64,000 nt of DNA. It comes from Candidatus Limnocylindrales bacterium (GTDB lineage: Bacteria > Patescibacteriota > Microgenomatia > Levybacterales > UBA12049). The position numbers and the translations under genes are program-made. Position 1 is the first letter of the stretch. Each line of letters begins with the position of its first letter. The notes beneath the pieces were generated by a model. It was not told the DNA's origin, ran no database searches, and was given only the letters and a program-made list of their open reading frames with translations. Positions 4,711 to 38,931 of the stretch are shown here, piece by piece. The DNA is taken from contig DATLDE010000011.1 in NCBI GenBank assembly GCA_035526025.1, positions 49,374 to 113,373 of the forward strand. Direction: 5' to 3'.

Positions 4711-6183
4711 TTAATTGAAATTCCCAACATCTTTTGAAATCCAGTATTTTATTTTATTTTCCGGCAAAAGCATAATCCTACTCGGACTTAGTCCCTCAAC
4801 AAATTCCTCCGTGTGGCTTACAAAAAGCATTGCCCCTTTATAAGTTTTTAACGCTTCAAGTATTGTTCTTTGCGATACCATATCAAGATACGTTGTGGGT
4901 TCATCAAGTATAAGCAAATTATAATTTTGAAGCATCAGCATCGCAATCGATAGTCTGGTCTTCTCGCCCCCTGAAAGTGTACCGATTTTTTGATAAAGTT
5001 GAGGTCTTGGGAAATTAAATGAACCGAAAATTGGCAATATTTGCTGAAGAGCCAGACTGCATTGCTCCTCAATCATTTCCATTATCGTCTGTTCAAAATT
5101 AAATGTTTCAAATTCTTGTGAGTAATACCCGATATGAAGCTCAGGATCTTTTATAATATCACCAGTTGTAGGCTGCAGTCTTCCCATGAGGATTTTGATA
5201 AATGTACTTTTTCCAGCACCGTTTGGACCATACAGTGCGATGCGCTCTCCACGTTTTATAGCAAGTGATACATCATTTAAGATTTTTTTTCCTTCAAAAC
5301 TTATTGAGATATCTTTCACCCGTAGAGGGATTTCACTGGTTCGCTTTGGCTCAGGGAGCGTAAATTTAATACCACGAACTTCTTTGGGCAATTCTGGCAA
5401 TTTGTCTTTGATACGATCAATACGTGTCTGTACGCTTGCACGCGCTCTCGCACCCTTTTCTGTAAATCCACTTGCCATTTTCAAAAGACTTTTTTTCATA
5501 CGATTTATTTCTTTTTGATCATTCTCAAATTTTTTCGCAAGCATCGCGTCATTGTTTCCTTTTAACTTAACGTATTTTGTATAATTTCCTTTATATTCCT
5601 CAATTTTCTTTGTTGTAGGGTTAATTGCCAGGATTTTATCGATATGATTATCAAGAAGACTGATATCATGAGAAATTATTAGTAGGGTATTTGGATAATC
5701 ACTCAAAAATTCCATTATCCATCTCTTGCCCTCTGTATCCAGAAAATTGGTTGGTTCATCAAGCAAGAGAATCTCTGGCTCCTGAATTATTGCACGAAGC
5801 AAGGCGAGCTTTGTGCGCTGTCCACCACTTAGAATTTTGGGCATTGTGTCCAGATCTGCATTCACTTCAAGAGACTCAAGCATTACCATAAGCTCCCACA
5901 TTTCTTTTTTCATTTCAGGGTCTATATAGCTTTTGATATCTACTGCAGCAACGAGTAGGGGATCATGTTTTACTTCTTGAGGTACATATCCGATACTTCC
6001 TTGAATTTGTAGGGATCCAGTCGAAGCCTGATCTTCACCTCTTAAGAGCTTAAATAAAGTTGATTTACCAGCCCCATTTGGACCGACCAACCCAATCAGC
6101 TCACCCTTTATGACAGAAAAGCTGGAGTCAGTATAGACAACTTGACGGGAATAACCATAAGAAATATTTTTGGCGATAATCAT
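4711..6183 (-). CDS. ABC-F family ATPase (tandem ABC domains, no membrane domain)
   Basis: Two Walker A sites (GPNGAGKST twice), two ABC signatures (LSGGQRTKLALL, LSGGEKTRLSIA), two Walker B sites (LLLDEPTN, LILDEPTT). 490 aa. Confidence 0.75.
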   Translation of the reverse strand: MIIAKNISYGYSRQVVYTDSSFSVIKGELIGLVGPNGAGKSTLFKLLRGEDQASTGSLQIQGSIGYVPQEVKHDPLLVAAVDIKSYIDPEMKKEMWELMVMLESLEVNADLDTMPKILSGGQRTKLALLRAIIQEPEILLLDEPTNFLDTEGKRWIMEFLSDYPNTLLIISHDISLLDNHIDKILAINPTTKKIEEYKGNYTKYVKLKGNNDAMLAKKFENDQKEINRMKKSLLKMASGFTEKGARARASVQTRIDRIKDKLPELPKEVRGIKFTLPEPKRTSEIPLRVKDISISFEGKKILNDVSLAIKRGERIALYGPNGAGKSTFIKILMGRLQPTTGDIIKDPELHIGYYSQEFETFNFEQTIMEMIEEQCSLALQQILPIFGSFNFPRPQLYQKIGTLSGGEKTRLSIAMLMLQNYNLLILDEPTTYLDMVSQRTILEALKTYKGAMLFVSHTEEFVEGLSPSRIMLLPENKIKYWISKDVGNFN

Positions 6184-6286
6184 AATTATTTTTGAGGAAA
6201 AGAATTAAACTAATTAGTTCTTGTGAGGGTCGCAAAGCGCAAAACACAATCTCTTCTTACATTTCTATTTATTATACCAGATCTAG

Positions 6287-6369
6287 TGCGGACGAAAGGA
6301 GTTGAACCTTCACACCCTTTCGGGCACTACCACCTCAAGGTAGCGTGTATACCATTTCACCACGTCCGC
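6287..6369 (-). tRNA. tRNA-Leu (anticodon GAG)
   Basis: Reverse complement is GCGGACGTGGTGAAATGGTATACACGCTACCTTGAGGTGGTAGTGCCCGAAAGGGTGTGAAGGTTCAACTCCTTTCGTCCGCA. The long variable arm is typical of Leu. No encoded CCA. Confidence 0.8.
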
Positions 6370-6559
6370 GTATTTTTGTGCCCCTGAGGGACTTTCTTTT
6401 GAACACTTCTTGCCTTGGATTCAGAAAATAATAAATGTTTATCAAAACCTTGAAGATGCTCAAGACGGTCAGCTTATACCTCAGGACATTACAACCTCTA
6501 AAGCATATTATACGAAAAAATTGAATTAAAAGAAAGTTAAATGATTAATAGAGAATTGG

Positions 6560-6832
6560 TTACTTTCCGTAGACTTCATCATGTGTTCCAATATCGACAA
6601 AGTATGCTGTACTATCATCAAGTAAATGATAAATCATTCTTATATTCATTGTAATTGAGATACTCCACATGTTTGTTAAGTTCCCAGTTAATTTATGGAG
6701 TCGCAATGAAGGATGCCTCGGATTAGTTTTTAATAGCTGTAATTGTTTAATGATTTTCTTTTCTAGTTTTTGATCTGTTTTTTTAATTCTTGATAATTCT
6801 TTTACGACAAGCGGAGAGAGTTTAAAATTCAT
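6560..6832 (-). CDS. type II toxin, RelE/ParE superfamily
   Basis: 90 aa. HPSLRLHKLTGNLTNMWSISIT...YFVDIGTHDEVY fits the RelE/YafQ-like core. Start overlaps the upstream antitoxin stop (ATGA). Confidence 0.65.
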   Translation of the reverse strand: MNFKLSPLVVKELSRIKKTDQKLEKKIIKQLQLLKTNPRHPSLRLHKLTGNLTNMWSISITMNIRMIYHLLDDSTAYFVDIGTHDEVYGK

Positions 6833-7086
6833 TACAATTCTTCAAAAAACTTAGTGACATCGTTAACTGAAACTGCATTATTAATCTGCTCCATTGCTTC
6901 CTTGGCTCTTTTTTCAGTCCTTTCAGACATTTTAAATGTAGGATATTCTTCAGTCTCTACCTCTTTGATTATGAGATGTTTTACAAATTGAGTTACAGGA
7001 ATACCTAAGCGCGAAGCTTTAGACTGCAATAAATCATTCAGTTGGTCCGAAAGGCTAATTTTGAGTTGTATTTGTTGTGTATTCAT
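6832..7086 (-). CDS. cognate antitoxin (RHH/ParD-DinJ-like)
   Basis: 84-aa acidic protein immediately upstream of, and overlapping, the toxin. PVTQFVKHLII is ribbon-helix-helix-like. Confidence 0.5.
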   Translation of the reverse strand: MNTQQIQLKISLSDQLNDLLQSKASRLGIPVTQFVKHLIIKEVETEEYPTFKMSERTEKRAKEAMEQINNAVSVNDVTKFFEEL

Positions 7087-7227
7087 AAAATTACTTAATT
7101 AATACCTAAATTATACCTATAAACTGTAGCTATGTCAAGATATAAAAAAATAAAGTGTTCAACTCTCCTTTAGGTGGTCATAAAAAATAGGCTAAAAATA
7201 CAAAAACTATTAAGTTATAAAATCGCC

Positions 7228-7255
7228 ATTTAGCCCGATATATCAATCTATTCGT
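7228..7255. repeat. 27-bp direct repeat, copy 1 (ATTTAGCCCGATATATCAATCTATTCGT)
   Basis: Matches 8581..8607 in 26 of 27 positions. The two copies bracket the Fic gene. Confidence 0.7.
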
Positions 7256-7391
7256 ATGTTTGAGACCGACCATGTCTCCTCTGGTGCACAAGAGAACTCT
7301 TATTTTGAACTCTTGCTGACATATTGTAACAAGTTGATGGAGGCTTATCAAGATAAAGCTGAAGACAAAATTGATAAAAATGAATAATTCC

Positions 7392-27263: not shown

Positions 27264-27461
27264 TTAATCACGCCTGACCCAAAACTCTAGAACACGTCTT
27301 TTCTGGGGATCAATAGTGATTTTGTCCCAATATTTCTTAAGATGTTTTGTATCAATTTTCTCTCCCTCTAAACCATAATTTATCAATTGCTCAAGCTTCC
27401 AAATAACATGTTTTTCAGAATTTTTCTCAAGTATTGCTGTGTCCGTACTCCAATTATGCAT
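27264..27461 (-). CDS. small hypothetical protein upstream of the Fic-MerR gene
   Basis: 65-aa Lys/Glu-rich ORF in the same orientation as the Fic gene. Uncertain. Confidence 0.3.
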   Translation of the reverse strand: MHNWSTDTAILEKNSEKHVIWKLEQLINYGLEGEKIDTKHLKKYWDKITIDPQKRRVLEFWVRRD

Positions 27462-27572
27462 AAGTCTATTCTACCAGATCCTAAGCGAATATTCAGCATA
27501 AACGGATGGCCTCAATTTAGCCTCAAAACAGCACTTGACAGAAATGGGCCACATTATGTATACTTCTTGTAT

Positions 27573-27845
27573 ATGAATACAACATCTATACATATAAAAA
27601 TAGAAGCTGATATTAAAGCACAAGCTCAAAAAACAGCAGAAGAACTAGGTCTTTCTTTGAGCGCTGTTATGAAAGCATTGCTCAAACAATTCATTCGCAC
27701 AAAACATTTATCCGTAGGATTAAGCGAAGAGCCTTCTTCCTACATGCTTGAAGCATTAAAAAAATCAGATAAAGAATATAAAGAAGGCAAAACTTCCCCA
27801 AGTTTTACCGCAGTTGAAGACTCTTTCAAATGGCTCGATCAATAA
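27573..27845 (+). CDS. RelB/DinJ-family antitoxin
   Basis: MNTTSIHIKIEADIKAQAQKTAEELGLSLSAVMKALL is an RHH DinJ-like N-terminus. Start at the internal ATG of track ORF 27387..27845. The stop overlaps the toxin start. Confidence 0.6.
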   Translation: MNTTSIHIKIEADIKAQAQKTAEELGLSLSAVMKALLKQFIRTKHLSVGLSEEPSSYMLEALKKSDKEYKEGKTSPSFTAVEDSFKWLDQ

Positions 27846-28124
27846 ATGAGCATGTCTATCAAGTATTCAACCACATTCAAAAAACAATATAAGAAAGCTC
27901 CAAAAAAGATACAAGAAAAAGTAAAAGAACGAATCAGTATTTTCGTTCAAGATCCTACAAATCAACAACTGAATAATCATGGTCTCACAGGAAAATTTCA
28001 GGGAATACGCAGTATAAACATCACAGGAGATTGGAGAGCAGTTTATTCAATACGCTTAAATTCACAATCACAAAAGGAGTATTATTTCGAGCTAGTGGGA
28101 ACACATAGCCAACTATATAAATAA
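27846..28124 (+). CDS. YafQ/RelE-family toxin
   Basis: HGLTGKFQGIRSINITGDWRAVYSI...FELVGTHSQLY matches the YafQ/RelE core. Confidence 0.7.
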   Translation: MSMSIKYSTTFKKQYKKAPKKIQEKVKERISIFVQDPTNQQLNNHGLTGKFQGIRSINITGDWRAVYSIRLNSQSQKEYYFELVGTHSQLYK

Positions 28125-29104: not shown

Positions 29105-29746
29105 ATGGCTAGCAAATTCAAGAAGCTTACAGGCATCAAGAACCCTCTTGAGTCACTAAGTGATTTTACAGGGATAGGCCACGCCACTGCAAAATCCGCA
29201 AAAGACGATATTTTAAAAGGTTCAGCAAATGATTTCATGGAAATGCTCGGACTTGGTCTGGAATCAACAGACAAAAAAGGATCCAAACATTCAGAGCCAA
29301 CTGACATTGTTGATTTTACCAAATCAAAGGATTCTCAAAAATCCAAACCTGAGTCCCGCATCGAGGCAGCAATTGATTACCACCGCGATATAGTCAGGTC
29401 AAGTGAAAATATATCAAGGACTGAGCTTCAGACAATGAATAGTAAAGTCCAGCAGATAAAAATGGAGCTACAAGCGCTTGTTGCATCATCAAAAGACCTG
29501 CAAATGACTTTTGCATCAGTAACAGTTGAGCAGACTACGACAAATATAGGTACATATCATGAAAATTTCTTTGACTGGATGATTAATATGATACGGGATG
29601 CAAGAAAGAAAGTTGAAGACTCAGGATCATGGATGAATGCAGCAAAAGGAAAAGGAAATAAAAAAGGCTACTGGGGAATGTTCAAAAAACATGGCACAAG
29701 CTTTGGTCTTTCAAATGAGCGAAGTGTTGCAACTCAAGTCGGGTAA
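29105..29746 (+). CDS. hypothetical protein
   Basis: 213-aa ORF. Confidence 0.4.
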   Translation: MASKFKKLTGIKNPLESLSDFTGIGHATAKSAKDDILKGSANDFMEMLGLGLESTDKKGSKHSEPTDIVDFTKSKDSQKSKPESRIEAAIDYHRDIVRSSENISRTELQTMNSKVQQIKMELQALVASSKDLQMTFASVTVEQTTTNIGTYHENFFDWMINMIRDARKKVEDSGSWMNAAKGKGNKKGYWGMFKKHGTSFGLSNERSVATQVG

Positions 29747-29750
29747 GCTC

Positions 29751-29887
29751 TTGACCATTTGAAAAAAGTTTGCTATTATCAATTTATGAAATCACAAAAA
29801 TTTGTAACATTATCACTCCTTCTTAACCCGTAAGGGCGGGGAAGAATGTTGTGAATTGAATACCCGCCAACTGAGCGGGTTTTTTTG
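29751..29887 (+). promoter_or_regulatory. promoter + 15-codon Leu-rich leader ORF + intrinsic terminator (putative attenuator)
   Basis: Promoter: TTGACC 29751-56, 17-nt spacer, TATTAT 29774-79. Leader ATG at 29786 encodes MKSQKFVTLSLLLNP* (29786..29833). Terminator hairpin CCCGCCAACTGAGCGGG plus a T-run (29864..29887). The upstream GGGCGGGG (29834-41) could form an antiterminator. Confidence 0.5.
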
Positions 29888-29912
29888 TGGTTTGAAAGGA
29901 GGTGGGAAAAAT

Positions 29913-30233
29913 ATGAGAAATGAGCAAGTACCATTAGAGGTATTAAGAGTAGCAACTGATACAAGATGGCATGATCAGGTTGCAGAAGTAATGAATAAAA
30001 GAAGACCGGGGGCTGTTACGGTCTTTGAGGCAACAGATGATCAACCTAAAGGATATTCATATCCTGTTGAAAGTCCGTTTAGAGCATTAACTAGAGCTGC
30101 ACAAAATTTTGACACAGCTTTAGAAGCTATTACACCTGACGCAGATGCCAGAGCAATAGAAGTCAGAAAAGCAATTAAAAAAGTTTATAAAGATCAAACC
30201 AAAAAAAGATTTGGTAGACGCAGGGGAAAATAA
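29913..30233 (+). CDS. hypothetical basic protein
   Basis: Start at the ATG after the RBS AAAGGAGGTGGG. Track ORF is 29856..30233. Arg-rich tail. Confidence 0.45.
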   Translation: MRNEQVPLEVLRVATDTRWHDQVAEVMNKRRPGAVTVFEATDDQPKGYSYPVESPFRALTRAAQNFDTALEAITPDADARAIEVRKAIKKVYKDQTKKRFGRRRGK

Positions 30234-30292
30234 CTTATCCTTATAATCAAAACTGTTTGGAGGCATATTGAAACAAAGGAGGTGAGTAAATT

Positions 30293-30700
30293 ATGAATAG
30301 AAACATAGAAGGAGATACAAGAGAAAGAATGGTAACTGGTGAAAATTTAGCCATGCAGTTAGCAGGTAAGGTTACAGCAACTCTTGATACAATGTCAGAA
30401 AAAGGTATACCAGATGGTGCTACTGTTGGGCGGTTAAAAGGTGTATTCCCACAAATCAGAGATAGGGATATTGATCGCATCTTGGGTAAATCGTCAAAAA
30501 GAATGGGAACCATAGTGGTACCACGCGATAGTGTTGTTAAATTGGTTGTAAGCGTTGGATATCCAAGTCAAGTTGGAAATAAACCCTTTGATAAAGCACT
30601 GGAAAGTGCAATTCGTGATGAAAATAGAAAGAGGGCCGAAGCGCAACGCCTTAAAAGAAATGGAGGAAGTGTTCAGTCTAGATCTTCCGGAGGAAAATGA
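30293..30700 (+). CDS. hypothetical basic protein
   Basis: RBS AAGGAGGTGAG precedes the ATG. 135 aa. Confidence 0.45.
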   Translation: MNRNIEGDTRERMVTGENLAMQLAGKVTATLDTMSEKGIPDGATVGRLKGVFPQIRDRDIDRILGKSSKRMGTIVVPRDSVVKLVVSVGYPSQVGNKPFDKALESAIRDENRKRAEAQRLKRNGGSVQSRSSGGK

Positions 30701-30724
30701 TAAGCATTACATATTTCAAATAGC

Positions 30725-30855
30725 TTGACGAAAAAATATACTCGTGGTATTATAGCTTAGATGAAGGCGAAATTATTTTTAAATGAAATTAGTATTAACT
30801 CCTAGAGAGAGGTTCTATCGCGTTTGCAATGGACCTCCCGAACGGGAGTTTTTTT
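30725..30855 (+). promoter_or_regulatory. promoter + short leader ORF + hairpin/T-tract upstream of ilvA (putative attenuator)
   Basis: Promoter: TTGACG 30725-30, 17-nt spacer, TATTAT 30748-53. Leader ATG at 30761 encodes MKAKLFLNEISINS* (to 30805). Hairpin CTCCCGAACGGGAG plus 7 T (30835..30855) lies immediately before the ilvA ATG. Confidence 0.45.
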
Positions 30856-32106
30856 ATGCTTATGGAAGTTACTGTTAAAACAATTGATGACGCCGCGAAA
30901 ACACTGGAAAGTGTTGTGAAAAAGACACCTCTTCAGCACAATAAAAGATTATCTGATCAATTTGGTGCAAATATTTATTTTAAACGTGAAGACTTACAAG
31001 ACGTAAGGTCATATAAGATACGCGGTGCATATACTCTGATGAGCACTCTTAGTACGGAGGAGAAAAGTAAAGGGGTAGTTGCAGCGAGTGCCGGAAATCA
31101 TGCACAAGGCGTTGCGATGAGCGCAAGCCTTCTTAAGATAAAAGCGACCATTTTCATGCCGGTTATCACACCGCGTCAGAAAATAAACAAGGTAAAGCAT
31201 TTTGGAAAAGATTTTATAGAAATAAAACTTGTCGGGCAGGTATATGACGAAGCTTCCGCTGCAGCGTACGCATATTGTAAGGCACAAAAAATGGTATATG
31301 TTCACCCATTTAATGATCCACGAACAATGTCAGGGCAGGGAACAGTAGGTAAGGAGATATTGGAACAACTTGAATCATCACCTGATTATATTTTCTGCCC
31401 GATTGGCGGAGGAGGGCTTATATCAGGACTTGGTACTTACGTAAAAGAAAAGTATAAAGATACAAAAATAATTGGTGTTGAACCCAAAGGCGCTCCGGCG
31501 ATGTATGAATCCTTCAAACAAAAAAAAGTTATCACGCTAAACGATATAGATACATTTGTTGATGGTGCGGCAGTAACGACAGTCGGGGACCTGAGCTATA
31601 AGATCGCAAGCCTTGTAACAGACAAAATCGTTGTCAGTGATGAAGGGAAAATATGTACAACTATGATTGAGGTATATCAGAATGAGGGCATCATAGCAGA
31701 GCCAGCTGGTGCCTTATCAATTTCAGCAATAGATGATTTTGCAAAAGAAATAAAAGGCAAAACTGTAGTCTGCATTCTAAGTGGTGGGAATAACGATATT
31801 CTGCGCTATCCAGAAGTTATGGAAAAAAGCCTGGTGTATAGAGGGCTCAAACACTATTTTCTGATAGAATTTGCACAAAAACCAGGCCAGTTAAAACAAT
31901 TTTTAAATCACGCCCTCGGTCCAAATGATGACATTGTACTTTTCGAATACATAAAAAGAAATTCAAGAGAAAAAGGACCTGCATTAATTGGGGTTGAGTT
32001 AACAAAGAAAGAAGATTTATCAACACTTTTGGAAAGAATGAAAAAAATGCAGTTGCGTTATACTAAAATAACAAGTGATGATCCACTTTATGGATTTATA
32101 TTATGA
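30856..32106 (+). CDS. ilvA: threonine dehydratase (threonine ammonia-lyase) with C-terminal ACT-like regulatory domain
   Basis: TPLQHNKRLSDQFGANIYFKREDLQDVRSYKIRGAY and SAGNHAQGVA place it in the PLP fold-II family. Track ORF begins at 30829, but that ATG lies inside the hairpin. 30856 or 30862 is the more likely start. Confidence 0.75.
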   Translation: MLMEVTVKTIDDAAKTLESVVKKTPLQHNKRLSDQFGANIYFKREDLQDVRSYKIRGAYTLMSTLSTEEKSKGVVAASAGNHAQGVAMSASLLKIKATIFMPVITPRQKINKVKHFGKDFIEIKLVGQVYDEASAAAYAYCKAQKMVYVHPFNDPRTMSGQGTVGKEILEQLESSPDYIFCPIGGGGLISGLGTYVKEKYKDTKIIGVEPKGAPAMYESFKQKKVITLNDIDTFVDGAAVTTVGDLSYKIASLVTDKIVVSDEGKICTTMIEVYQNEGIIAEPAGALSISAIDDFAKEIKGKTVVCILSGGNNDILRYPEVMEKSLVYRGLKHYFLIEFAQKPGQLKQFLNHALGPNDDIVLFEYIKRNSREKGPALIGVELTKKEDLSTLLERMKKMQLRYTKITSDDPLYGFIL

Positions 32107-32189
32107 CCCTTCGACTATGCTCAGGTCATTCGACTCTGAGGGAGCCCTCAGGCTCAGACTCGAAGAGATCATGTTGAGTTTATCGAAAT

Positions 32190-32561
32190 ATGAAAAAAAT
32201 TTACACTGATAAAGCACCCAGGCCTGTCGGCCCATATTCTCAGGCAATTATAAGCAATGGAATGGTATTTACAGCGGGACAAATTGGCCTGGATCCAATA
32301 TCAGGTAATCTGGTAGGAGTGGATATTGCAGAACAAACAACGCAAGTCATCAAAAATCTGAATGAAGTACTTACGGAAGCGGGTAGTTCCCTTCAAAAAG
32401 TTATTAAAACCACGTGTTACTTAAAAAATATGGATGATTATACTGTTTTCAATGAAATTTATGCAAAGCACTTTACAAATAATCCAGCGCGCTCAACTGT
32501 GGAAGTCTCCAAACTTCCTAAAGACGCGCTAATTGAAATAGAAGTAATCGCTGAGATTTGA
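32190..32561 (+). CDS. ridA: RidA/YjgF-family reactive-intermediate deaminase
   Basis: YSQAIISNGMVFTAGQIGLDP. 123 aa. Confidence 0.75.
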   Translation: MKKIYTDKAPRPVGPYSQAIISNGMVFTAGQIGLDPISGNLVGVDIAEQTTQVIKNLNEVLTEAGSSLQKVIKTTCYLKNMDDYTVFNEIYAKHFTNNPARSTVEVSKLPKDALIEIEVIAEI

Positions 32562-32571
32562 CTCTTCATTT

Positions 32572-33651
32572 ATGATTAATAAAAACCGCCTGATTAATAC
32601 ATTCCTGGAACTCGTGAAAATTGATAGCCCTTCTGGTGAGGAAAAAGCCATCAGTAAATTCATCGCTTTAAAGCTTTCTGATTTAGGTGGTGAAGTATCA
32701 TTTGACAGTTATGGAAATCTTCTTGGAAAGTTCAAAGGAACAGGGGACGCAATAATGCTAAACGCACATCTCGATACAGTTGAACCCGGACGTGGAATTT
32801 CACCTTTAGTTAAAAATGATCGTATTACAAGTGACGGCCGTACTGTTCTAGGCGCTGATGCAAAATCGGGAATTGCCATGATTTTGGAAGCTATCACTTC
32901 TCTTGTTGAGGATAAAATTTCTCACCTACCACTTGATGTATTGTTCACTGTTGAGGAGGAAACAGGCCTACATGGAGCTTCCAATCTTGACTATACGATG
33001 CTTGAAGCAAAATATGGAATAACTTTTGATGGACAAAGCTCGGTCAATAACATCACAAGTTCTGCTCCCGGGTTTATCCGGGTTGATGCAGCAGTTATAG
33101 GGCGGGGTGCCCATGCTGGCTATGAACCAGAAAAAGGATTATCTGCTATCAAAATAGCTGCAGAAATAATTACCAAACTTGATGTTGGAAGGATTGATTC
33201 TGAAACAACGGCAAATATAGGTACAATTCACGGAGGAAGTGTCAGAAATGCTGTCCCTGAGACTGTACATATTGAAGCTGAGATTAGAAGCAGAAATTTA
33301 GAAAAACTAAATGCTCACAAGACACACTTTGAAAAAGTCTTTAAAGATGCCTCCAAAAAATATACTGATGCAAAAATAGATCTAAATCTTTTTAAAGAAT
33401 TTGATCCTTATCTATTTGATGAAACACAACCACTCAAAAAAATGGCTCTTCAAGCAATTAAAAAAATAGGCCTTGTGCCAAGTCTTAAGCCTTCAGGGGG
33501 CGCAACTGATGTGAACATTTTTCATACAAAAGGATTGAAGGCTTTATGCGTAGGCGCTGGGTATTATAATGCTCACACAACACGTGAATACGCTGTTATT
33601 TCCAAAATGGTTCAAGGAGCCAAGTTTTGTGAAGAAATTGTAAAGATATAA
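32572..33651 (+). CDS. M20-family metallopeptidase (PepT/ArgE/DapE-like)
   Basis: NAHLDTVEPG carries the metal-binding His. Dimerisation-domain layout. 359 aa. Confidence 0.6.
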   Translation: MINKNRLINTFLELVKIDSPSGEEKAISKFIALKLSDLGGEVSFDSYGNLLGKFKGTGDAIMLNAHLDTVEPGRGISPLVKNDRITSDGRTVLGADAKSGIAMILEAITSLVEDKISHLPLDVLFTVEEETGLHGASNLDYTMLEAKYGITFDGQSSVNNITSSAPGFIRVDAAVIGRGAHAGYEPEKGLSAIKIAAEIITKLDVGRIDSETTANIGTIHGGSVRNAVPETVHIEAEIRSRNLEKLNAHKTHFEKVFKDASKKYTDAKIDLNLFKEFDPYLFDETQPLKKMALQAIKKIGLVPSLKPSGGATDVNIFHTKGLKALCVGAGYYNAHTTREYAVISKMVQGAKFCEEIVKI

Positions 33652-33657
33652 ATAATG

Positions 33658-33731
33658 TGGATCTAAGTGGATTCGAACCGCTGACCTCTTCAATGTCAAT
33701 GAAGCGCTCTAACCAACTGAGCTATAGATCC
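33658..33731 (-). tRNA. tRNA-Val (anticodon GAC)
   Basis: Reverse complement is GGATCTATAGCTCAGTTGGTTAGAGCGCTTCATTGACATTGAAGAGGTCAGCGGTTCGAATCCACTTAGATCCA. One C-A mismatch in the T-stem. Confidence 0.7.
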
Positions 33732-33836
33732 TTTTATCTCCTCATTCTAACAAAACCGTAGCTTTTAGACAAACTAAATTTCATAAATTATGAAGGTAAC
33801 CTTGACAGTTCAAAGCATTGATGGTGTAATTGCATT

Positions 33837-34073
33837 ATGCCTAGAGATATTCAACCATATGAAAAAGCTGGTGCACGCTTAAAACTTCGGGAAATAGTAG
33901 CCAATAACTTCATAGGCGGAGTATTTTGGGCTGTTGGAGCAACAGTAGGGCTTGCTATTGTATTCTCTGTACTTACAATTGTCTCAAATAACATTGACCT
34001 TATTCCTGTTATCGGATCATTTGTTTCTGAAATAATTGATTTTGTCATAACCAAGAATCCAAATCTCAGGTAA
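33837..34073 (+). CDS. small membrane protein
   Basis: 78 aa with one long hydrophobic helix. Confidence 0.35.
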   Translation: MPRDIQPYEKAGARLKLREIVANNFIGGVFWAVGATVGLAIVFSVLTIVSNNIDLIPVIGSFVSEIIDFVITKNPNLR

Positions 34074-34112
34074 CATCTTTATAAACTCCTAAAATTCAGC
34101 TATAATCCGTTT

Positions 34113-35861
34113 ATGGATAAAGAAAAATTGGAACACCTCAGACATTCTACAGCTCATCTTCTGGCAGCTGCTGTAATGGAAATCTGGCCAAATACCAAAA
34201 GAGCTATTGGTCCGGCAATAGATAATGGATTTTATTTTGATTTTGAGTTTGAAAATCCAATCTCAGAAGAAAATTTCCCACAAATTGAGAAAAAAATGAA
34301 TGAAATTCTAAAATCCTGGAATAACTTTGAAAAACATTTGTTAACTCCCGATGATGCAAAAAAAGAATTCCCAAACAATCCATATAAACATGAATTAATT
34401 GATGAATTCTCAAAAAATGATGAGAAACTGAGCTTTTATAAATCCGGTACGTATTGGGATCTTTGTAAAGGCGGGCATGTCGAAAATCCATCAAAAGAAA
34501 TCGGAGCTTTTAAATTACTATCAGTTGCAGGAGCATACTGGAGGGGCAGTGAAAAAAATAAAATGCTGACCAGGATTTATGGAACTGCATTTTCATCTAA
34601 AAAAGAGCTTGACGAACATTTAAATATGCTTGAGGAAGCAAAACTACGGGATCATAAAAAATTAGGAAAAGAATTAGATCTTTTTGTATTTTCAGATATT
34701 GTAGGTAAAGGCTTACCCTTATGGACTCCTAAGGGCTCGATTATTCGTCGTGAACTGGAGAGATTTATAACAGATGAAGAAATTAAAAGAGACTATTTAC
34801 ACGTTTATACACCAGATTTAGCAAATGTAGCATTATATGAAAAGTCTGGCCACTATCCCTATTACAAAGAATCAATGTATGCACCGATTAAAGTAGATGG
34901 CGAAGAGTTTATGCTTAGACCAATGTCTTGCCCGCATCATTTTGAACTATATCTTAGCAAGCCGCATAGTTATAAAGAATTGCCAATAAGATATGCTGAA
35001 CTTGCCAAGCTTTATCGTTATGAACAATCAGGCGAGCTAGCAGGACTGCAAAGAGTACGCTCTTTCACTCTAGCTGATGCACATATAGTTGTAAGTGTTG
35101 AACAGGCAACAGATGAAATAACAAAAGTTCTTGATTTAATTGATGATTCGGTAAAATTATTGGGGCTTAAGTTGGGAAAGGACTATTGGTACAGATTGTC
35201 ACTGGGGGACCGAGAAGACGAAAAAAAATATTTCAAAGATGACCTATCATGGGACAATGCAGAAAAAGCTTTACGAGATGCTCTGAAAAAAAGAAAAGCG
35301 GATTTTGAGGAAGCAGCTGGTGAGGCTGCTTTTTATGGTCCCAAGATAGATATACAAATGAAAAATGTAAATGGCAAAGAAGACACAGCTTTCACTGTAC
35401 AGTATGATTTTGTAATGCCAAAACGGTTTAATCTTACATATATAAATGACCTGGGAGAAGACGTAATGCCTGTTGTAATTCATAGATCATCAATTGGTGC
35501 TATTGAAAGACTTATGGCATTCCTAATTGAGCATACTGCTGGTGCATTTCCTACATGGCTTGCGCCTGTTCAGATTTCTTTACTTCCAATTGCGGATAGA
35601 CACATAGAATTCGCAGAAAAAGCCAAAAAAGAATTGAAAAATGCAGGTATACGCGTTGAGATTGATTCCAGATCAGAAAGACTTCAGGCCAAAATTCGAG
35701 ATGCTGCTTTACAAAAAGTACCATTTATGGGTATAATAGGGGATAAGGAATTAGAGGGAAGTACCGTCTCTGTTAGAATGCGGGGAGGAGAAGACTTAGG
35801 ATCTCTATCTGTAACGACACTTAAAGATAAATTAAAAGAAAACATTGATAAGAAAATTTAA
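34113..35861 (+). CDS. thrS: threonyl-tRNA synthetase (lacking the N-terminal TGS/N1 domain)
   Basis: Begins at the HSTAHLLAAAV editing-domain motif, followed by the class II core and the anticodon-binding domain. 582 aa. Confidence 0.85.
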   Translation: MDKEKLEHLRHSTAHLLAAAVMEIWPNTKRAIGPAIDNGFYFDFEFENPISEENFPQIEKKMNEILKSWNNFEKHLLTPDDAKKEFPNNPYKHELIDEFSKNDEKLSFYKSGTYWDLCKGGHVENPSKEIGAFKLLSVAGAYWRGSEKNKMLTRIYGTAFSSKKELDEHLNMLEEAKLRDHKKLGKELDLFVFSDIVGKGLPLWTPKGSIIRRELERFITDEEIKRDYLHVYTPDLANVALYEKSGHYPYYKESMYAPIKVDGEEFMLRPMSCPHHFELYLSKPHSYKELPIRYAELAKLYRYEQSGELAGLQRVRSFTLADAHIVVSVEQATDEITKVLDLIDDSVKLLGLKLGKDYWYRLSLGDREDEKKYFKDDLSWDNAEKALRDALKKRKADFEEAAGEAAFYGPKIDIQMKNVNGKEDTAFTVQYDFVMPKRFNLTYINDLGEDVMPVVIHRSSIGAIERLMAFLIEHTAGAFPTWLAPVQISLLPIADRHIEFAEKAKKELKNAGIRVEIDSRSERLQAKIRDAALQKVPFMGIIGDKELEGSTVSVRMRGGEDLGSLSVTTLKDKLKENIDKKI

Positions 35862-36435
35862 GCCAAATCAAAAGAAAATTTATAGGCTCAATCAAAGAAT
35901 TTTTGCATCCCCTCTAAGAGTTCTAGATGCAGAAGGAACATTAATTGGAGTCCTAACAAAATTTGAAGCACTAAAGCTTGCCCAGGAACAGGAGCTAGAT
36001 CTAGTTGAGATAGCACCAAAAGCAAACCCACCTGTTGCAAAGATAGTTGATTTTAATAAATTTCTTTATCAACAGGAGAAAAAGAAAAAAGAAGAAAAGA
36101 AAAAAGCAAAAACAAGTGAGACCAAGGAAGTTAGACTTGGCCCATTTATGTCTGAGAACGACCTCCAAGTTGTTATCAGAAGGGCCCGGGATTTTCTCGA
36201 AGAAGGACATAAATTAAGGCTTGTTTTGAAATTCAGGGGAAGACAAATAGTCCATCCCGAATTTGGACACAAAATCATAAATAAATTTGTTGAGTCTCTA
36301 AAAGACTTATCAAAAGTTGATAGAGAAGCGCATTTTGAAGGAAAACAACTGGTAGCACTCCTATCAGCTGATAAAGGGGCGCAGGTCAAAAAACCGAGCC
36401 CGCCTGCGAGCGCAAGCGAGACAGGGGAGGAGTAA
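35845..36435 (+). CDS. infC: translation initiation factor IF-3
   Basis: RVLDAEGTLIGVLTKFEALKLAQEQELDLVEI. The true start may be a downstream non-ATG codon (ATT/ATA), as is usual for infC. Confidence 0.8.
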   Translation: MIRKFKPNQKKIYRLNQRIFASPLRVLDAEGTLIGVLTKFEALKLAQEQELDLVEIAPKANPPVAKIVDFNKFLYQQEKKKKEEKKKAKTSETKEVRLGPFMSENDLQVVIRRARDFLEEGHKLRLVLKFRGRQIVHPEFGHKIINKFVESLKDLSKVDREAHFEGKQLVALLSADKGAQVKKPSPPASASETGEE

Positions 36436-36438
36436 AGC

Positions 36439-36651
36439 ATGAAGAAAACGACGAAGACAAAACAAAAAGTTAGAGGATCTGTAAGTAAACGCTTTAAGGT
36501 TACAAAAACCGGCAAAGTGCAATTTGCGCATCAAATGGGAAGTCATAAAAAACTTCACAAGTCAAAAAGCCGCATCAGACGTCAAAAAGAGCCAGGAGAA
36601 CTAACAGGCGCATTTGCAAAAAAAGTAAAACAAATGCTGGGAGTCGCATAA
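36439..36651 (+). CDS. rpmI: 50S ribosomal protein L35
   Basis: MKKTTKTKQKVRGSVSKRFKVTKTGKV. Confidence 0.85.
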   Translation: MKKTTKTKQKVRGSVSKRFKVTKTGKVQFAHQMGSHKKLHKSKSRIRRQKEPGELTGAFAKKVKQMLGVA

Positions 36652-36661
36652 AGGAGATATT

Positions 36662-37012
36662 ATGGCAAGAGTAAAAAGAGGAACTATATCACGAAGAAAA
36701 CACGTTAAATTACTTTCCCTTACAAAAGGGTTTAAGGGTACGAAAAGTACACTTATAAAAGAAGCTAAATCAGCTAGTCTTCATGCTGGGCAATACGCAT
36801 ATCACGGAAGAAAAATCAAAAAAGGAGACTTCAGGACACTTTGGATCACAAGAATTGGTGAAGCTGTAAAATTACAAGGCCTTTCATACAGTGTATTTAT
36901 AGATAAACTTAAAAAAGCAAATATTGAACTTGATCGAAAAATATTAAGCAATCTATTGGTTGAGGACCCGGCAGCATTCAAGCACGTTGTTGACTCAGTC
37001 AACAAATCTTAG
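36662..37012 (+). CDS. rplT: 50S ribosomal protein L20
   Basis: MARVKRGTISRRKHVKLLSLTKGFKG. Confidence 0.9.
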   Translation: MARVKRGTISRRKHVKLLSLTKGFKGTKSTLIKEAKSASLHAGQYAYHGRKIKKGDFRTLWITRIGEAVKLQGLSYSVFIDKLKKANIELDRKILSNLLVEDPAAFKHVVDSVNKS

Positions 37013-37120
37013 TACGATAAACATATGATTAACAAGCAAATTTCTTGGAACTTCTATTATTTTACCACCCTTACCGGGATGGTTAAGTAATGGTAAATTA
37101 ACAAAATACCAAAACATAAA

Positions 37121-37143
37121 CCTCCCAGTTGGAGGTTTTTTTT
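37121..37143 (+). terminator. intrinsic terminator after rplT
   Basis: CCTCCCAGTTGGAGG followed by an 8-T run. Confidence 0.6.
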
Positions 37144-37161
37144 ATTGAGAATATAAAACAT

Positions 37162-37536
37162 ATGATAAGAAATGAATTAAAACGAGACACTGTTGAGATA
37201 TGGCAACGAAGAAATTCAGGAACACCTGGGGGCGGAGATGTTATCACAGCTACATTATTTCCGTTGCCTCATGGCGCTGGTGTCCATAAATTTGATACTC
37301 CAACAGGTACTGTAACTGTTGATATGAGATTTGAAAATATAAATCCTGCAAACGAAACACAGCACGCTGTCGTAAAAGGTCCTCACACTGGTGGAAAAAT
37401 CGAGGTAGAGCTTAAAAATGGACGGGGGAGGTCAACGCCCACTCCAGATGTAGAAGTAGTTTGTGATGTATTCAAACTCACAAATGCATTAAAGGCAATG
37501 CACGCGCATGATAGTCGCCCTAGAAAGGGCTGGTAG
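37162..37536 (+). CDS. hypothetical protein (Gly/Thr/Pro-rich)
   Basis: Start at the internal ATG (MIRNELKR...) after the terminator. Track ORF is 37129..37536. Confidence 0.4.
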   Translation: MIRNELKRDTVEIWQRRNSGTPGGGDVITATLFPLPHGAGVHKFDTPTGTVTVDMRFENINPANETQHAVVKGPHTGGKIEVELKNGRGRSTPTPDVEVVCDVFKLTNALKAMHAHDSRPRKGW

Positions 37537-37549
37537 CCTAGTAATATAT

Positions 37550-37694
37550 TTGACTAAATTCAAATAGTTTGATATACTATATTCAGATGAAGAACCTAAC
37601 AAAAATAAATGCATTCTTTTTTGCCTTTGCGTAAGCGGAGGTAGTTTTTGCGTTAAAAAAACTAACTAACCTCCGAAAAGCGGAGGTTTTTTTA
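37550..37694 (+). promoter_or_regulatory. Phe-leader transcription attenuator (pheM/pheL-like) upstream of pheA-pheS-pheT
   Basis: Promoter: TTGACT 37550-55, 17-nt spacer, TATACT 37573-78. Leader ORF 37587..37634 encodes MKNLTKINAFFFAFA*. GCGGAGG (37635-41) can pair with CCTCCG (37670-75) as an antiterminator. The terminator CCTCCGAAAAGCGGAGG plus 7 T spans 37670..37693. Confidence 0.7.
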
Positions 37695-37707
37695 TGGAGA
37701 AAATTAT

Positions 37708-38931
37708 ATGACAAGAGCTGAAACAGCAACACAACCACCGAGTGATGTTTTGAGAAAAACTGAGGGTAGTCCTCTGCGTACTTATGCATATCTTAAGCCA
37801 AATGGTAACTTTACTCACTTGGCAGCTTTAGAATTGATAAAGCGACCTCAGCATGAATCTGCTATTCTAATTGGTGAAAGCGGAATCGATAATCTATTTG
37901 GATCAATTATATCTGGGCGTACATCACACGCGCTTATTCCCATTGAAAACTCCACTGAAGGACCTGTACCAAAGTCTCACGCTAATCTTTTTGAACATGA
38001 TGTTACCATAGTAGGCGAAATGAATATGCCTATAATTCCGTCTATTTATTATCAAGATAAAACCACGGTTAAAAAAGTCGCATCAAAAGACTCAGCTCTA
38101 GGACAGTGCAAGCAACACATCAGAAAGCATTTTGGAAGCGATGTAGAATTAATTGAAATGGAAAGCACAGGGGATGCTGTTGCGCTTGCAGCAAAAGATC
38201 CAACCGTAGCAGCTATAGGAAGTTCGATATCAGCCAGGGAACAAGGTATAGATAATTTGCATCAAATAGATAACTTTAATGACAAAGACTTAAACGCGAC
38301 AACATTCGCATTAGTTCAAAAGGGTGGCGAGCTTCCTTCACCCACAGGAGATGATAAAACAACTTTTATAATGACGATTGAGGACTCAAAAGGAAAATTG
38401 GTAGATGCTCTAGATGTGCTCGCAAAAAAAGGAGTAGATCTGAATAAAATTAAATCAATAAATAAAACTCTTGATACCGTAAGCTTCTTAGTTTCGGCAG
38501 ATGGACATGTTGATGATGAAGGCCCGACTGGCGCAGCGCTAATGGCTCTTGCCGAATCAGGTGTTATTGTAAAAAAACTTGGATCTTATCCAAAAGATGA
38601 TTACGCACCTCCTGAAAATAATGAAGATTATGATTTTGACGCAGCTATTGAGCGAATACAAAATGAAGCCAAAAACGGTGATGAAATGGATAAGAATAAA
38701 ACAATTGTTGTATTCACCCTACAAGATAAGCCAGGAGCACTTTTGGGTGCTTTAAAACCATTTGCTGACGAAGGAGTGAATTTAACCAAAATTGACTCAC
38801 AACCAAGCGGTATTCCAAATGAACATATTTTTTATCTTGCGTTTGATAATCAAACACCTCGTGCCGATGAGCTTATTACAGAATTAGGCAAACACTGTCA
38901 TCATGTTGCAAAATTGCAGCGTGCAGCATAA
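37708..38931 (+). CDS. pheA: prephenate dehydratase with two C-terminal ACT domains
   Basis: IPIENSTEGPV is the PDT ENS.EG motif. ACT-like segments TTFIMTIEDSKGKLVDALDVLAKKGVDLNKIKS and IVVFTLQDKPGALLGALKPFADEGVNLTKIDSQPS. Confidence 0.75.
   Translation: MTRAETATQPPSDVLRKTEGSPLRTYAYLKPNGNFTHLAALELIKRPQHESAILIGESGIDNLFGSIISGRTSHALIPIENSTEGPVPKSHANLFEHDVTIVGEMNMPIIPSIYYQDKTTVKKVASKDSALGQCKQHIRKHFGSDVELIEMESTGDAVALAAKDPTVAAIGSSISAREQGIDNLHQIDNFNDKDLNATTFALVQKGGELPSPTGDDKTTFIMTIEDSKGKLVDALDVLAKKGVDLNKIKSINKTLDTVSFLVSADGHVDDEGPTGAALMALAESGVIVKKLGSYPKDDYAPPENNEDYDFDAAIERIQNEAKNGDEMDKNKTIVVFTLQDKPGALLGALKPFADEGVNLTKIDSQPSGIPNEHIFYLAFDNQTPRADELITELGKHCHHVAKLQRAA

Follow-up and report, generated by a model that had tools for sequence, protein, structure and literature searches.

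The locus analysed here lies at positions 29751-30700 of a 64,000-nucleotide (nt) stretch of contig DATLDE010000011.1 (the window) and comprises a predicted leucine (Leu)-responsive leader-peptide attenuator followed by two genes coding for proteins of 106 and 135 amino acids (aa), all on the forward strand. From the sequence, a sigma-70-type promoter (29751..29779) was recognized with a -35 box TTGACC (29751-29756), a 17-nt spacer, and a -10 box TATTAT (29774-29779) with the upstream TG of an extended -10 element, matching 10 of 12 consensus positions. The stop codon of the DUF5660 gene (29746) lies 4 nt 5' of the -35 box and no further terminator was found after this gene. The leader open reading frame (ORF; 29786..29833) encodes the 15-codon peptide MKSQKFVTLSLLLNP from an ATG at 29786, 6 nt 3' of the -10 hexamer and without a Shine-Dalgarno sequence, to a TAA stop codon at 29831-29833. 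Four Leu residues fall within its last seven codons, and the regulatory Leu codons (29810..29824) are TTA (codon 9, 29810) and CTC CTT CTT (codons 11-13, 29816-29824). The CTY codons would be read by the transfer RNA (tRNA)-Leu(GAG) encoded in the window at 6286-6369.

Four pairing regions were delimited in the transcript. Region 1 (29819..29831) is the pyrimidine-rich 3' end of the leader ORF (UUCUU..CCCG), which in minimum-free-energy folds partners region 2 in the untranslated RNA as a protector or pause hairpin. Region 2 (29834..29846; GGGCGGGGAAGAA), supported by masked folds and shuffles, lies immediately 3' of the stop codon with its G-rich core GGGCGGGG (29834-29841) abutting the latter; its GGCGGG pairs with region 3, and region 1 is matched by its AAGAA and GGG. 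Regions 3 and 4 (29862..29886) form, by sequence and folds, an intrinsic terminator composed of ACCCGCC (29862-29868), the loop AACTGA, GCGGGT (29875-29880), and a T7 run (29880-29886). Downstream, the sequence AAGGAGGTG provides a Shine-Dalgarno at 29896..29904 for the 106-aa gene (29913..30233; NCBI VM077_03615) and again at 30276..30284 for the 135-aa gene (30293..30700; VM077_03620). A first-pass annotation of this DNA had described the TTGACC-17-TATTAT promoter, the ATG 6 nt further on, the 15-codon Leu-rich ORF, and strong ribosome-binding sites for both genes, and each of these was found in place.

Comparison of loci carrying the 106-aa gene included the window and the relatives L001, L004, L005, L006, L010, and L037, with flanking DNA recovered for every relative. 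All seven loci held a promoter, an ORF with an LLL run, a G-rich segment, and a terminator 5' of the gene, and the Leu-leader promoter of the window was also kept in L001, L005, L006, L010, and L037. The leader peptides of the relatives were MKSQIAYTLSLLLNP (L001), MSIEVYSVSLNLLLTR (L004), MKSQNLITSVLLLNP (L005), MTTKHAIILSLLLNLA (L006), MKSQIAFTLALLLTR (L010), and MNHNSQSVILVLLLNP (L037); the check for Leu codons in orthologous leaders that the annotation had called for therefore returned the LLL run in six of the six other loci. The N-terminal half to two-thirds of the peptide was variable among loci and the C-terminal LLLNP was kept, with the stop codon abutting region 2 in all seven. The earlier Leu codon varied synonymously (TTA, TTG, or CTA by locus), and the Leu triple was CTC CTT CTT in some loci and CTT CTC CTT in others. 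The variable N-terminus, the position of the stop codon, and the synonymous Leu codon changes together argue for selection on translation of the Leu codons.

The leader was also linked to its downstream gene. Identity of the 106-aa homologues to the window protein was 86% in L005, 69% in L004, 59% in L001, and 46% in L006, the L010 homologue was a tandem two-domain protein with 26-32% identity, and the L037 homologue was matched by profile (E-value 3e-11). The leader stayed with this gene despite a different upstream neighbor, which was an ORF of 184 aa in both L001 and L004 and one of 320 aa in L037. Levybacteria without the 106-aa gene (L009, L011, and L014) had no Leu leader at this place, and their DUF5660 gene was followed directly by an isoleucine (Ile) leader. 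The first-pass annotation had named as its counter-case a mere terminator of the upstream gene with an unconserved leader ORF; the ORF was instead kept and the unit moved with the 106-aa gene. The ORF interposed between DUF5660 and the Leu leader in L001 (3186-3740) and L004 (754-1311), of 184/185 aa, belonged to no family, showed 47% mutual identity, and was absent from the window.

The G-rich segment had been proposed to compete with the terminator, and the folds bore this out. The antiterminator formed by GGCGGG (29835-29840) and CCCGCC (29863-29868) in the terminator 5' arm had an energy of -13.2 kcal/mol, which was reached by only 8 of 2000 spacer shuffles, and because antiterminator and terminator share the CCCGCC strand their pairings are mutually exclusive. 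The unmasked transcript adopted the region 1:2 hairpin plus the terminator (-27 kcal/mol, z = -2.45). With a ribosome mask of ~14 nt from the first base of the aminoacyl (A) site, an A site on Leu9, Leu11, or Leu12 of the window leader gave the antiterminator, and the terminator returned once the A site was moved to Leu13 or to the stop codon. L005 and L006 switched likewise, with slightly different Leu codons. Helices equivalent to region 1:2 were UCUCC/GGAGA in L001, L004, and L005, CUUCUCC/GGAGAAG in L010, and GUCUUC/GAAGAC plus CCUCGC/GCGAGG in L006. Across six loci, 93% of the cells of the terminator helix and 91.7% of those of the antiterminator were paired, and in the six close copies the helices had 84.9% and 91.7% paired cells compared to at most 67% in slid controls.

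Leu leaders were also identified in the more distant Levybacteria L018 (4598-5010) and L019 (5186-5640 and 4640-5189, stretches that also include an Ile leader), with the peptides MNRNFLLITLSLLLIEER and MTNRFVLSSLSLLVSDEC, respectively. Their regions 2 to 4 were unrelated in sequence to those of the window, but the four-region layout was kept. The L018 antiterminator was an 11-bp helix (GGUUUGGGAGA/UCUCCCAAACC, -19.4 kcal/mol) matched by none of 2000 shuffles, and the masked folds switched cleanly. For L019, every A-site position tested left the terminator as the fold of lowest energy, and the support from this genome is therefore architectural only. Both leaders preceded another small protein family starting MRYMN (73 and 80 aa), without ilvA behind it.

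The conserved leader, the alternative pairings, and the parallel Ile and phenylalanine (Phe) units of the same window (see below) support the earlier proposal of a Leu-responsive attenuator at 29751-30700. In our judgment, transcription at the locus is most likely attenuated through a leader peptide and the ribosome, with charged tRNA-Leu as the sensed signal and the 106-aa gene together with the small basic gene behind it as targets. The start site, the translation of the leader, and the response to Leu are predicted here from these features, as is any role of the products. Judging by the -10-to-ATG spacing, the transcript probably starts at or next to the AUG and is leaderless. RNA polymerase would start ~7 nt past TATTAT, at or beside the AUG, and a 70S ribosome would load on the leaderless 5' end. 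With plentiful Leu-tRNA the ribosome would reach the UAA and cover region 2, whereupon CCCGCC of region 3 would pair with GCGGG of region 4 and transcription would terminate at the T7 run. With scarce Leu-tRNA it would stall with the A site on Leu codon 9, 11, or 12, masking region 1 and leaving region 2 free; the free GGCGGG would then pair with CCCGCC once this was made, no terminator would form, and the polymerase would read through into the 106-aa and 135-aa genes. If the leader were untranslated, region 1 would pair with region 2 and the terminator would form. Read-through RNA from the upstream tig-DUF5660 operon, in which the AUG is internal and has no Shine-Dalgarno, would represent this untranslated case, such that the hairpin would in addition end transcription of the upstream operon.

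A scan of the window for a -10 box, an ATG within 4-9 nt, a short ORF, and a terminator returned four sites only, corresponding to the Leu leader and to Ile, Phe, and aromatic leaders. The Ile attenuator (30725..30855, forward strand) had the promoter TTGACG-17-TATTAT, a probably leaderless ORF (30761-30805) encoding MKAKLFLNEISINS, an antiterminator, and a terminator (30835-30848) with a T7 run. It was located immediately 5' of ilvA (30856-32106; threonine dehydratase, 622 bits in NCBIfam) and ahead of the ilvA-ridA-M20 peptidase genes. No terminator was found between the 135-aa gene and this unit and therefore read-through from the Leu attenuator would meet the Ile attenuator. Orthologous Ile leaders (MATKSIIIEIIINS, MNANFLILGIIINS, MTQQIKNINIINS, MVAQKFIIEIIIAP, MKRQGSIISIIINS, MLIKKAQIIINIITP, and MASQKIIIDIIIAP) preceded ilvA in L001, L004, L006, L009, L010, L011, L014, and L037, with the Ile runs IIIEIIINS, GIIINS, INIINS, IIEIIIAP, IISIIINS, QIIINIITP, and IIIDIIIAP. 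Ile was far more frequent in them than in the leader of the window, and their Ile codons varied synonymously among ATT, ATC, and ATA. As the Ile codons lie in no helix, RNA pairing cannot explain their conservation.

The Phe attenuator (37550-37693) encoded the probably leaderless leader MKNLTKINAFFFAFA with an FFFAF motif, folded into a 10-bp region 1:2 hairpin plus terminator, and preceded prephenate dehydratase pheA (PDT+ACT) followed by pheS and pheT. The location of the Ile and Phe leaders before their cognate ilvA and pheA-pheST genes indicates that the organism employs attenuation of this kind and matches the sensed amino acid to the genes as expected. A further leader, MINKQISWNFYYFTTLTGMVK (36990-37143), was identified just after rplT and before a 124-aa ORF (37162-37536) of no known family; it is a probable aromatic (Trp/Phe/Tyr) leader and thus a second attenuator with uncharacterised cargo, and its L018 counterpart began MARHQSFYFWFYFTS (L018 7660-7840). 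In L019 the Ile leader MNTRSIISIIEIITS preceded a 132-aa ORF of no known family instead of ilvA. In nearly all of the ~20 leaders the ATG was 6-8 nt after the -10 hexamer, the exceptions being L037 (~9 nt) and L004 (11 nt); there is no room for a Shine-Dalgarno, and leaderless translation is probable.

Several further observations were made on these units. The 3' arm of the Ile terminator, GGGAG followed by T7, sits exactly at the expected position of the ilvA Shine-Dalgarno, and the hairpin may also block initiation of ilvA translation. A conserved element of ~70 nt (AATCCGCC...GAGCCG...CGAAAAGTAA...GGCGGAT) was found between the Ile terminator and the ilvA start in L004 (2430-2505), L010 (5935-6005), and L037 (1938-2010). 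It was absent from the window, had no Rfam match, and gave a weak consensus fold only; possibly it represents another regulatory RNA, with the ribosome-binding site inside it. In L010, a complete Levybacteria chromosome (OY970292.1), ilvA was matched by tblastn in two adjacent pieces (6017-6118 and 6118-7275), indicating a frameshift or an assembly error near the 5' end. After the T-run of the Phe attenuator, a 5-codon mini-ORF ATGGAGAAAATTATATGA (37694-37710) runs into the start of pheA (37708), an overlap suggestive of translational coupling.

The regulated proteins had been described as Arg-rich, of no recognisable family, and similar in their GC-richer composition to an island at 16.7-25.5 kb. 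The first two statements were confirmed: Arg made up 12.3% of the 106-aa protein and 11.1% of the 135-aa protein compared to 4.5% on average for 51 genes of the window, both with basic tails (Gly/Ser-containing in the 135-aa protein), and neither protein had a match in Pfam, NCBIfam, PHROGs, or PADLOC. The compositional claim stood for the 135-aa gene, whose GC content (0.402) equals that of the island (0.402), and failed for the 106-aa gene (0.377), which lies close to the window mean of 0.373. Horizontal acquisition of the 106-aa gene as part of island-like, GC-rich DNA was not supported by this GC content, and the gene lies in conserved Levybacteria synteny. The 106-aa protein was poor in Leu (3.8%; 1.7-4.7% over the family compared to a genome mean of 9.6%), a depletion that fits proteins made under scarce Leu-tRNA.

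The 106-aa ORF is a real gene and its ratio of non-synonymous to synonymous substitution rates (dN/dS) was 0.14-0.48. The annotation had recommended remote homology searches and structure prediction, and for the 106-aa protein these gave a confident AlphaFold model from five sequences only (predicted local distance difference test [pLDDT] 86.8, predicted template modelling score [pTM] 0.77) with a beta-alpha-beta-beta-alpha-alpha order and a disordered basic tail. Beyond the protein family databases, no relative was found among PDB sequences or PDB folds. The family was very small, with five clusters among 5.8 billion clusters and about six clusters at 50% identity among 1.84 billion representatives. 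An exhaustive hidden Markov model (HMM) search of 1.84 billion representatives yielded seven hits, of which P0007 and P0008 were added as real relatives and two, P0009 and P0010, were discarded as spurious repeat proteins. A scan of genome contigs for the family gave no match and a metagenome scan returned solely the L006 contig once more. The 259-aa protein downstream of the L010 leader comprised two copies of the 106-aa domain in tandem (blastp 8.6e-8 and 2.6e-5). The 135-aa protein matched only itself among the 5.8 billion clusters, had a weak match to a 99-aa ORF of L006 (E-value 0.03-0.04), and gave a low-confidence model (pLDDT 67.5) with no fold match, so that by sequence it is effectively an orphan. 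In its place, L001, L005, and L037 carried a gene for a 64-69-aa basic protein (PxDW...GRPQG) and L004 yet another gene. The other attenuator-controlled small ORFs likewise had no match in Pfam, NCBIfam, PHROGs, or PADLOC. As a low-confidence guess, the 106- and 135-aa products could be Leu-sparing proteins that are produced under Leu starvation and attach to nucleic acid or ribosomes by their basic tails, in an organism that is probably without leucine synthesis.

Several results weigh against a Leu-responsive attenuator at this locus. Column-wise covariation was not significant among the six close leader copies and no measure exceeded the shuffles; the antiterminator and terminator helices were invariant in this close set, which accounts for the absent antiterminator covariation, and the region 1:2 helix shifted register without covarying. 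The region 1:2 duplex of the window was also not better than composition-matched shuffles (1413/2000). In L001 and L004 the minimum-energy fold kept the terminator with the A site on the LLL run and formed the antiterminator only at the earlier Leu stall, such that the switch there would rely on kinetics. Since the CUU/CUC codons also pair with region 2, part of the LLL conservation could be due to RNA structure alone. The 135-aa gene was not a conserved partner, the second gene differing between loci, and family and fold searches demonstrated no link of the 106- or 135-aa genes to leucine metabolism; the Leu-poor composition was the sole leucine link found for the regulated proteins.

Other explanations of the locus were weighed against the same data. 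The hairpin might do no more than end the upstream tig-DUF5660 operon as its intrinsic terminator, with the short ORF and the G-rich segment incidental, since the DUF5660 stop codon so close to the -35 box and the lack of another terminator mean that upstream transcripts must end here. That explanation is hardly tenable given that promoter, ORF, G-rich segment, and terminator were conserved as a unit moving with the 106-aa gene in L001, L004, and L037, that the element was missing after DUF5660 in the genomes L009, L011, and L014, which are without this gene, and that the antiterminator complementarity was above chance. A dual role, as terminator of upstream read-through and as attenuator of its own promoter, is likely. 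The ~100-nt promoter-to-terminator unit might alternatively be primarily a stand-alone small RNA (sRNA) or encode a trans-acting hydrophobic micropeptide, with downstream regulation secondary or absent. With both a promoter and a terminator of its own, it is complete as a transcription unit; the C-terminal LLLNP of its peptide is conserved, and a precedent exists in the Sinorhizobium meliloti trpL attenuator, from which, according to two papers, the trans-acting sRNA rnTrpL and peptide peTrpL arise (PMC7968998, PMC7298713). The window unit shares with trpL the self-contained promoter-leader-terminator organization of ~100 nt and the potential for sRNA and peptide release, whereas nothing at the window unit indicates a trans function. 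The unconserved N-terminal two-thirds of the peptide, the strict linkage to one downstream family, the antiterminator/terminator overlap, and the parallel Ile and Phe units speak for cis control and make a primarily trans-acting unit very improbable, although a trans role in addition to cis control could exist.

A ribosome-dependent attenuator whose signal is not specifically Leu was also considered, one that either responds to general translation stress or mainly feeds a Leu signal from upstream into the ilvA operon, the small genes being passengers. The lack of a terminator before the Ile leader and ilvA would let read-through reach ilvA, such that Leu and then Ile would act in series, in a way that recalls how E. 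coli ilvGMEDA is under multivalent control, and the small genes have no known leucine link. However, ilvA has its own near-consensus promoter and leader, in L009, L011, and L014 it is under the Ile leader alone, and the Leu leaders of L018 and L019 precede a small gene without ilvA behind it. The family-wide Leu depletion furthermore fits specific expression in Leu starvation, and a signal other than Leu, or one directed at ilvA, is unlikely.

The Leu-responsive attenuator was also compared with known systems. At gathering thresholds, Rfam matched only tRNAs in the whole window. In E-value mode, the Leu, Phe, and aromatic elements were matched only by amino-acid leader families, all below threshold: Leu_leader RF00512 at 29815-29886 (20.2 bits, E-value 1.5, gathering 50), Trp_leader RF00513 on the Leu leader (18.6 bits, gathering 41), and Phe_leader RF01859 (gathering 55) on the aromatic leader (37030-37145; 38.7 bits, the best of these sub-threshold hits), the Phe leader (37598-37695; 32.9 bits), and the Leu leader (22 bits). 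The Ile element had only a weak match to the sRNA STnc220 (24.6 bits compared to 60). The window leaders work like the Rfam amino-acid leader families and are not members of them. T-box riboswitches are the usual tRNA-charging sensors of Gram-positive bacteria; none was found at the gathering threshold in the window or up to E = 10 in 29700-37750, and the element is only ~100 nt long.

With enterobacterial leuL, of the trp/his/leu/thr/phe/ilv type, the window leader shares the Leu run near the end of the ORF, four regions with exclusive pairings, and a T-run terminator before the first gene. The E. coli leuL peptide contains ...GLLLLNA..., the counterpart of ...LSLLLNP in the window. Unlike leuL, the window leader has no 5' untranslated region or Shine-Dalgarno and is probably leaderless, encodes a 15-aa peptide with the stop codon abutting region 2, occurs in a Levybacteria-like host within the candidate phyla radiation (CPR) rather than a proteobacterium, and precedes two small uncharacterised proteins instead of leuABCD. 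The window Phe leader MKNLTKINAFFFAFA follows the same logic as E. coli pheL (pheA) and pheM (pheST) and is similar in style to the pheL peptide, but a single leader serves a fused pheA-pheS-pheT arrangement. Leaderless attenuators include those of Corynebacterium glutamicum trp and leuA, and mycobacteria have Cys-rich leaderless upstream ORFs. The C. glutamicum ilvBNC leader has also been treated as leaderless (PMC11857589). Shared with these actinobacterial attenuators are the predicted position of the AUG at the 5' end of the transcript, here judged from the spacing, and a subsequent three-hairpin attenuator, whereas the phylum differs, there is no sequence similarity, and the cargo here is uncharacterised and apparently non-biosynthetic. 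The predicted mechanism corresponds to textbook leader-peptide attenuation, in the leaderless form that is known for Actinobacteria.

The host lineage was assessed from gene content. The window encodes a trigger factor lacking the peptidyl-prolyl isomerase (PPIase) domain and a DUF5660 protein, and by DUF5660 and synteny (tig-DUF5660-ilvA-ridA-M20...thrS) the closest genomes were Candidatus Levybacteria/Levyibacteriota metagenome-assembled genomes (MAGs), with whose trigger factors the window copy was 75-77% identical. The NCBI name Candidatus Limnocylindrales (Chloroflexota) conflicts with the gene content, synteny, and best matches, which point to Levybacteria, and on these sequence grounds the window was treated as a Levybacteria-like CPR (Microgenomates) genome. 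Several related GTDB MAGs also carried implausible labels ('uncultured Gammaproteobacteria', Saccharimonadales, and Sulfotelmatobacter). A RelB-like antitoxin and YafQ/ParE-like toxin pair was noted at 27387-28124, just 5' of the trigger factor gene.

CPR/Patescibacteria are uncultured, have reduced genomes, and are commonly regarded as host-dependent for amino acids, and to our knowledge very little is known of their gene regulation. No paper joining leader-peptide attenuation with CPR/Patescibacteria was returned by full-text searches, and this kind of regulation is apparently undescribed so far in these bacteria. New here are the lineage, the presence of several such sensors within one 64-kb window, and the predicted control by the Leu sensor, and probably by the aromatic sensor, of lineage-specific orphan proteins rather than biosynthetic genes. 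A tentative wider reading is that Levybacteria-like CPR possess a set of leaderless attenuators (Leu, Ile, Phe, and mixed aromatic) as tRNA-charging sensors, of which the Leu and aromatic ones might switch on, instead of biosynthesis, small Arg-rich proteins that are restricted to the lineage, evolve fast, and contain little of the amino acid being sensed; these could make up a novel group of effectors for amino-acid starvation in episymbionts that are auxotrophic. As part of this same tentative reading, the effectors might include the 106-aa family, the 64-69-aa PxDW family, the MRYMN family, and the 124-aa ORF at 37162-37536. If true, these effectors might work by binding to ribosomes or nucleic acids, or might target the host in order to gain the amino acid that the cell lacks. 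For ilvA and pheA, the presence of Ile and Phe attenuators suggests true biosynthetic functions in these genomes. The conserved set of attenuators would mean that CPR bacteria monitor the charging of individual tRNAs by the logic known from E. coli, from leaderless transcripts, thereby extending leader-peptide attenuation to a new major lineage, and the 106-aa family could then carry the label 'induced by leucine starvation', a functional handle on an otherwise unannotatable gene.

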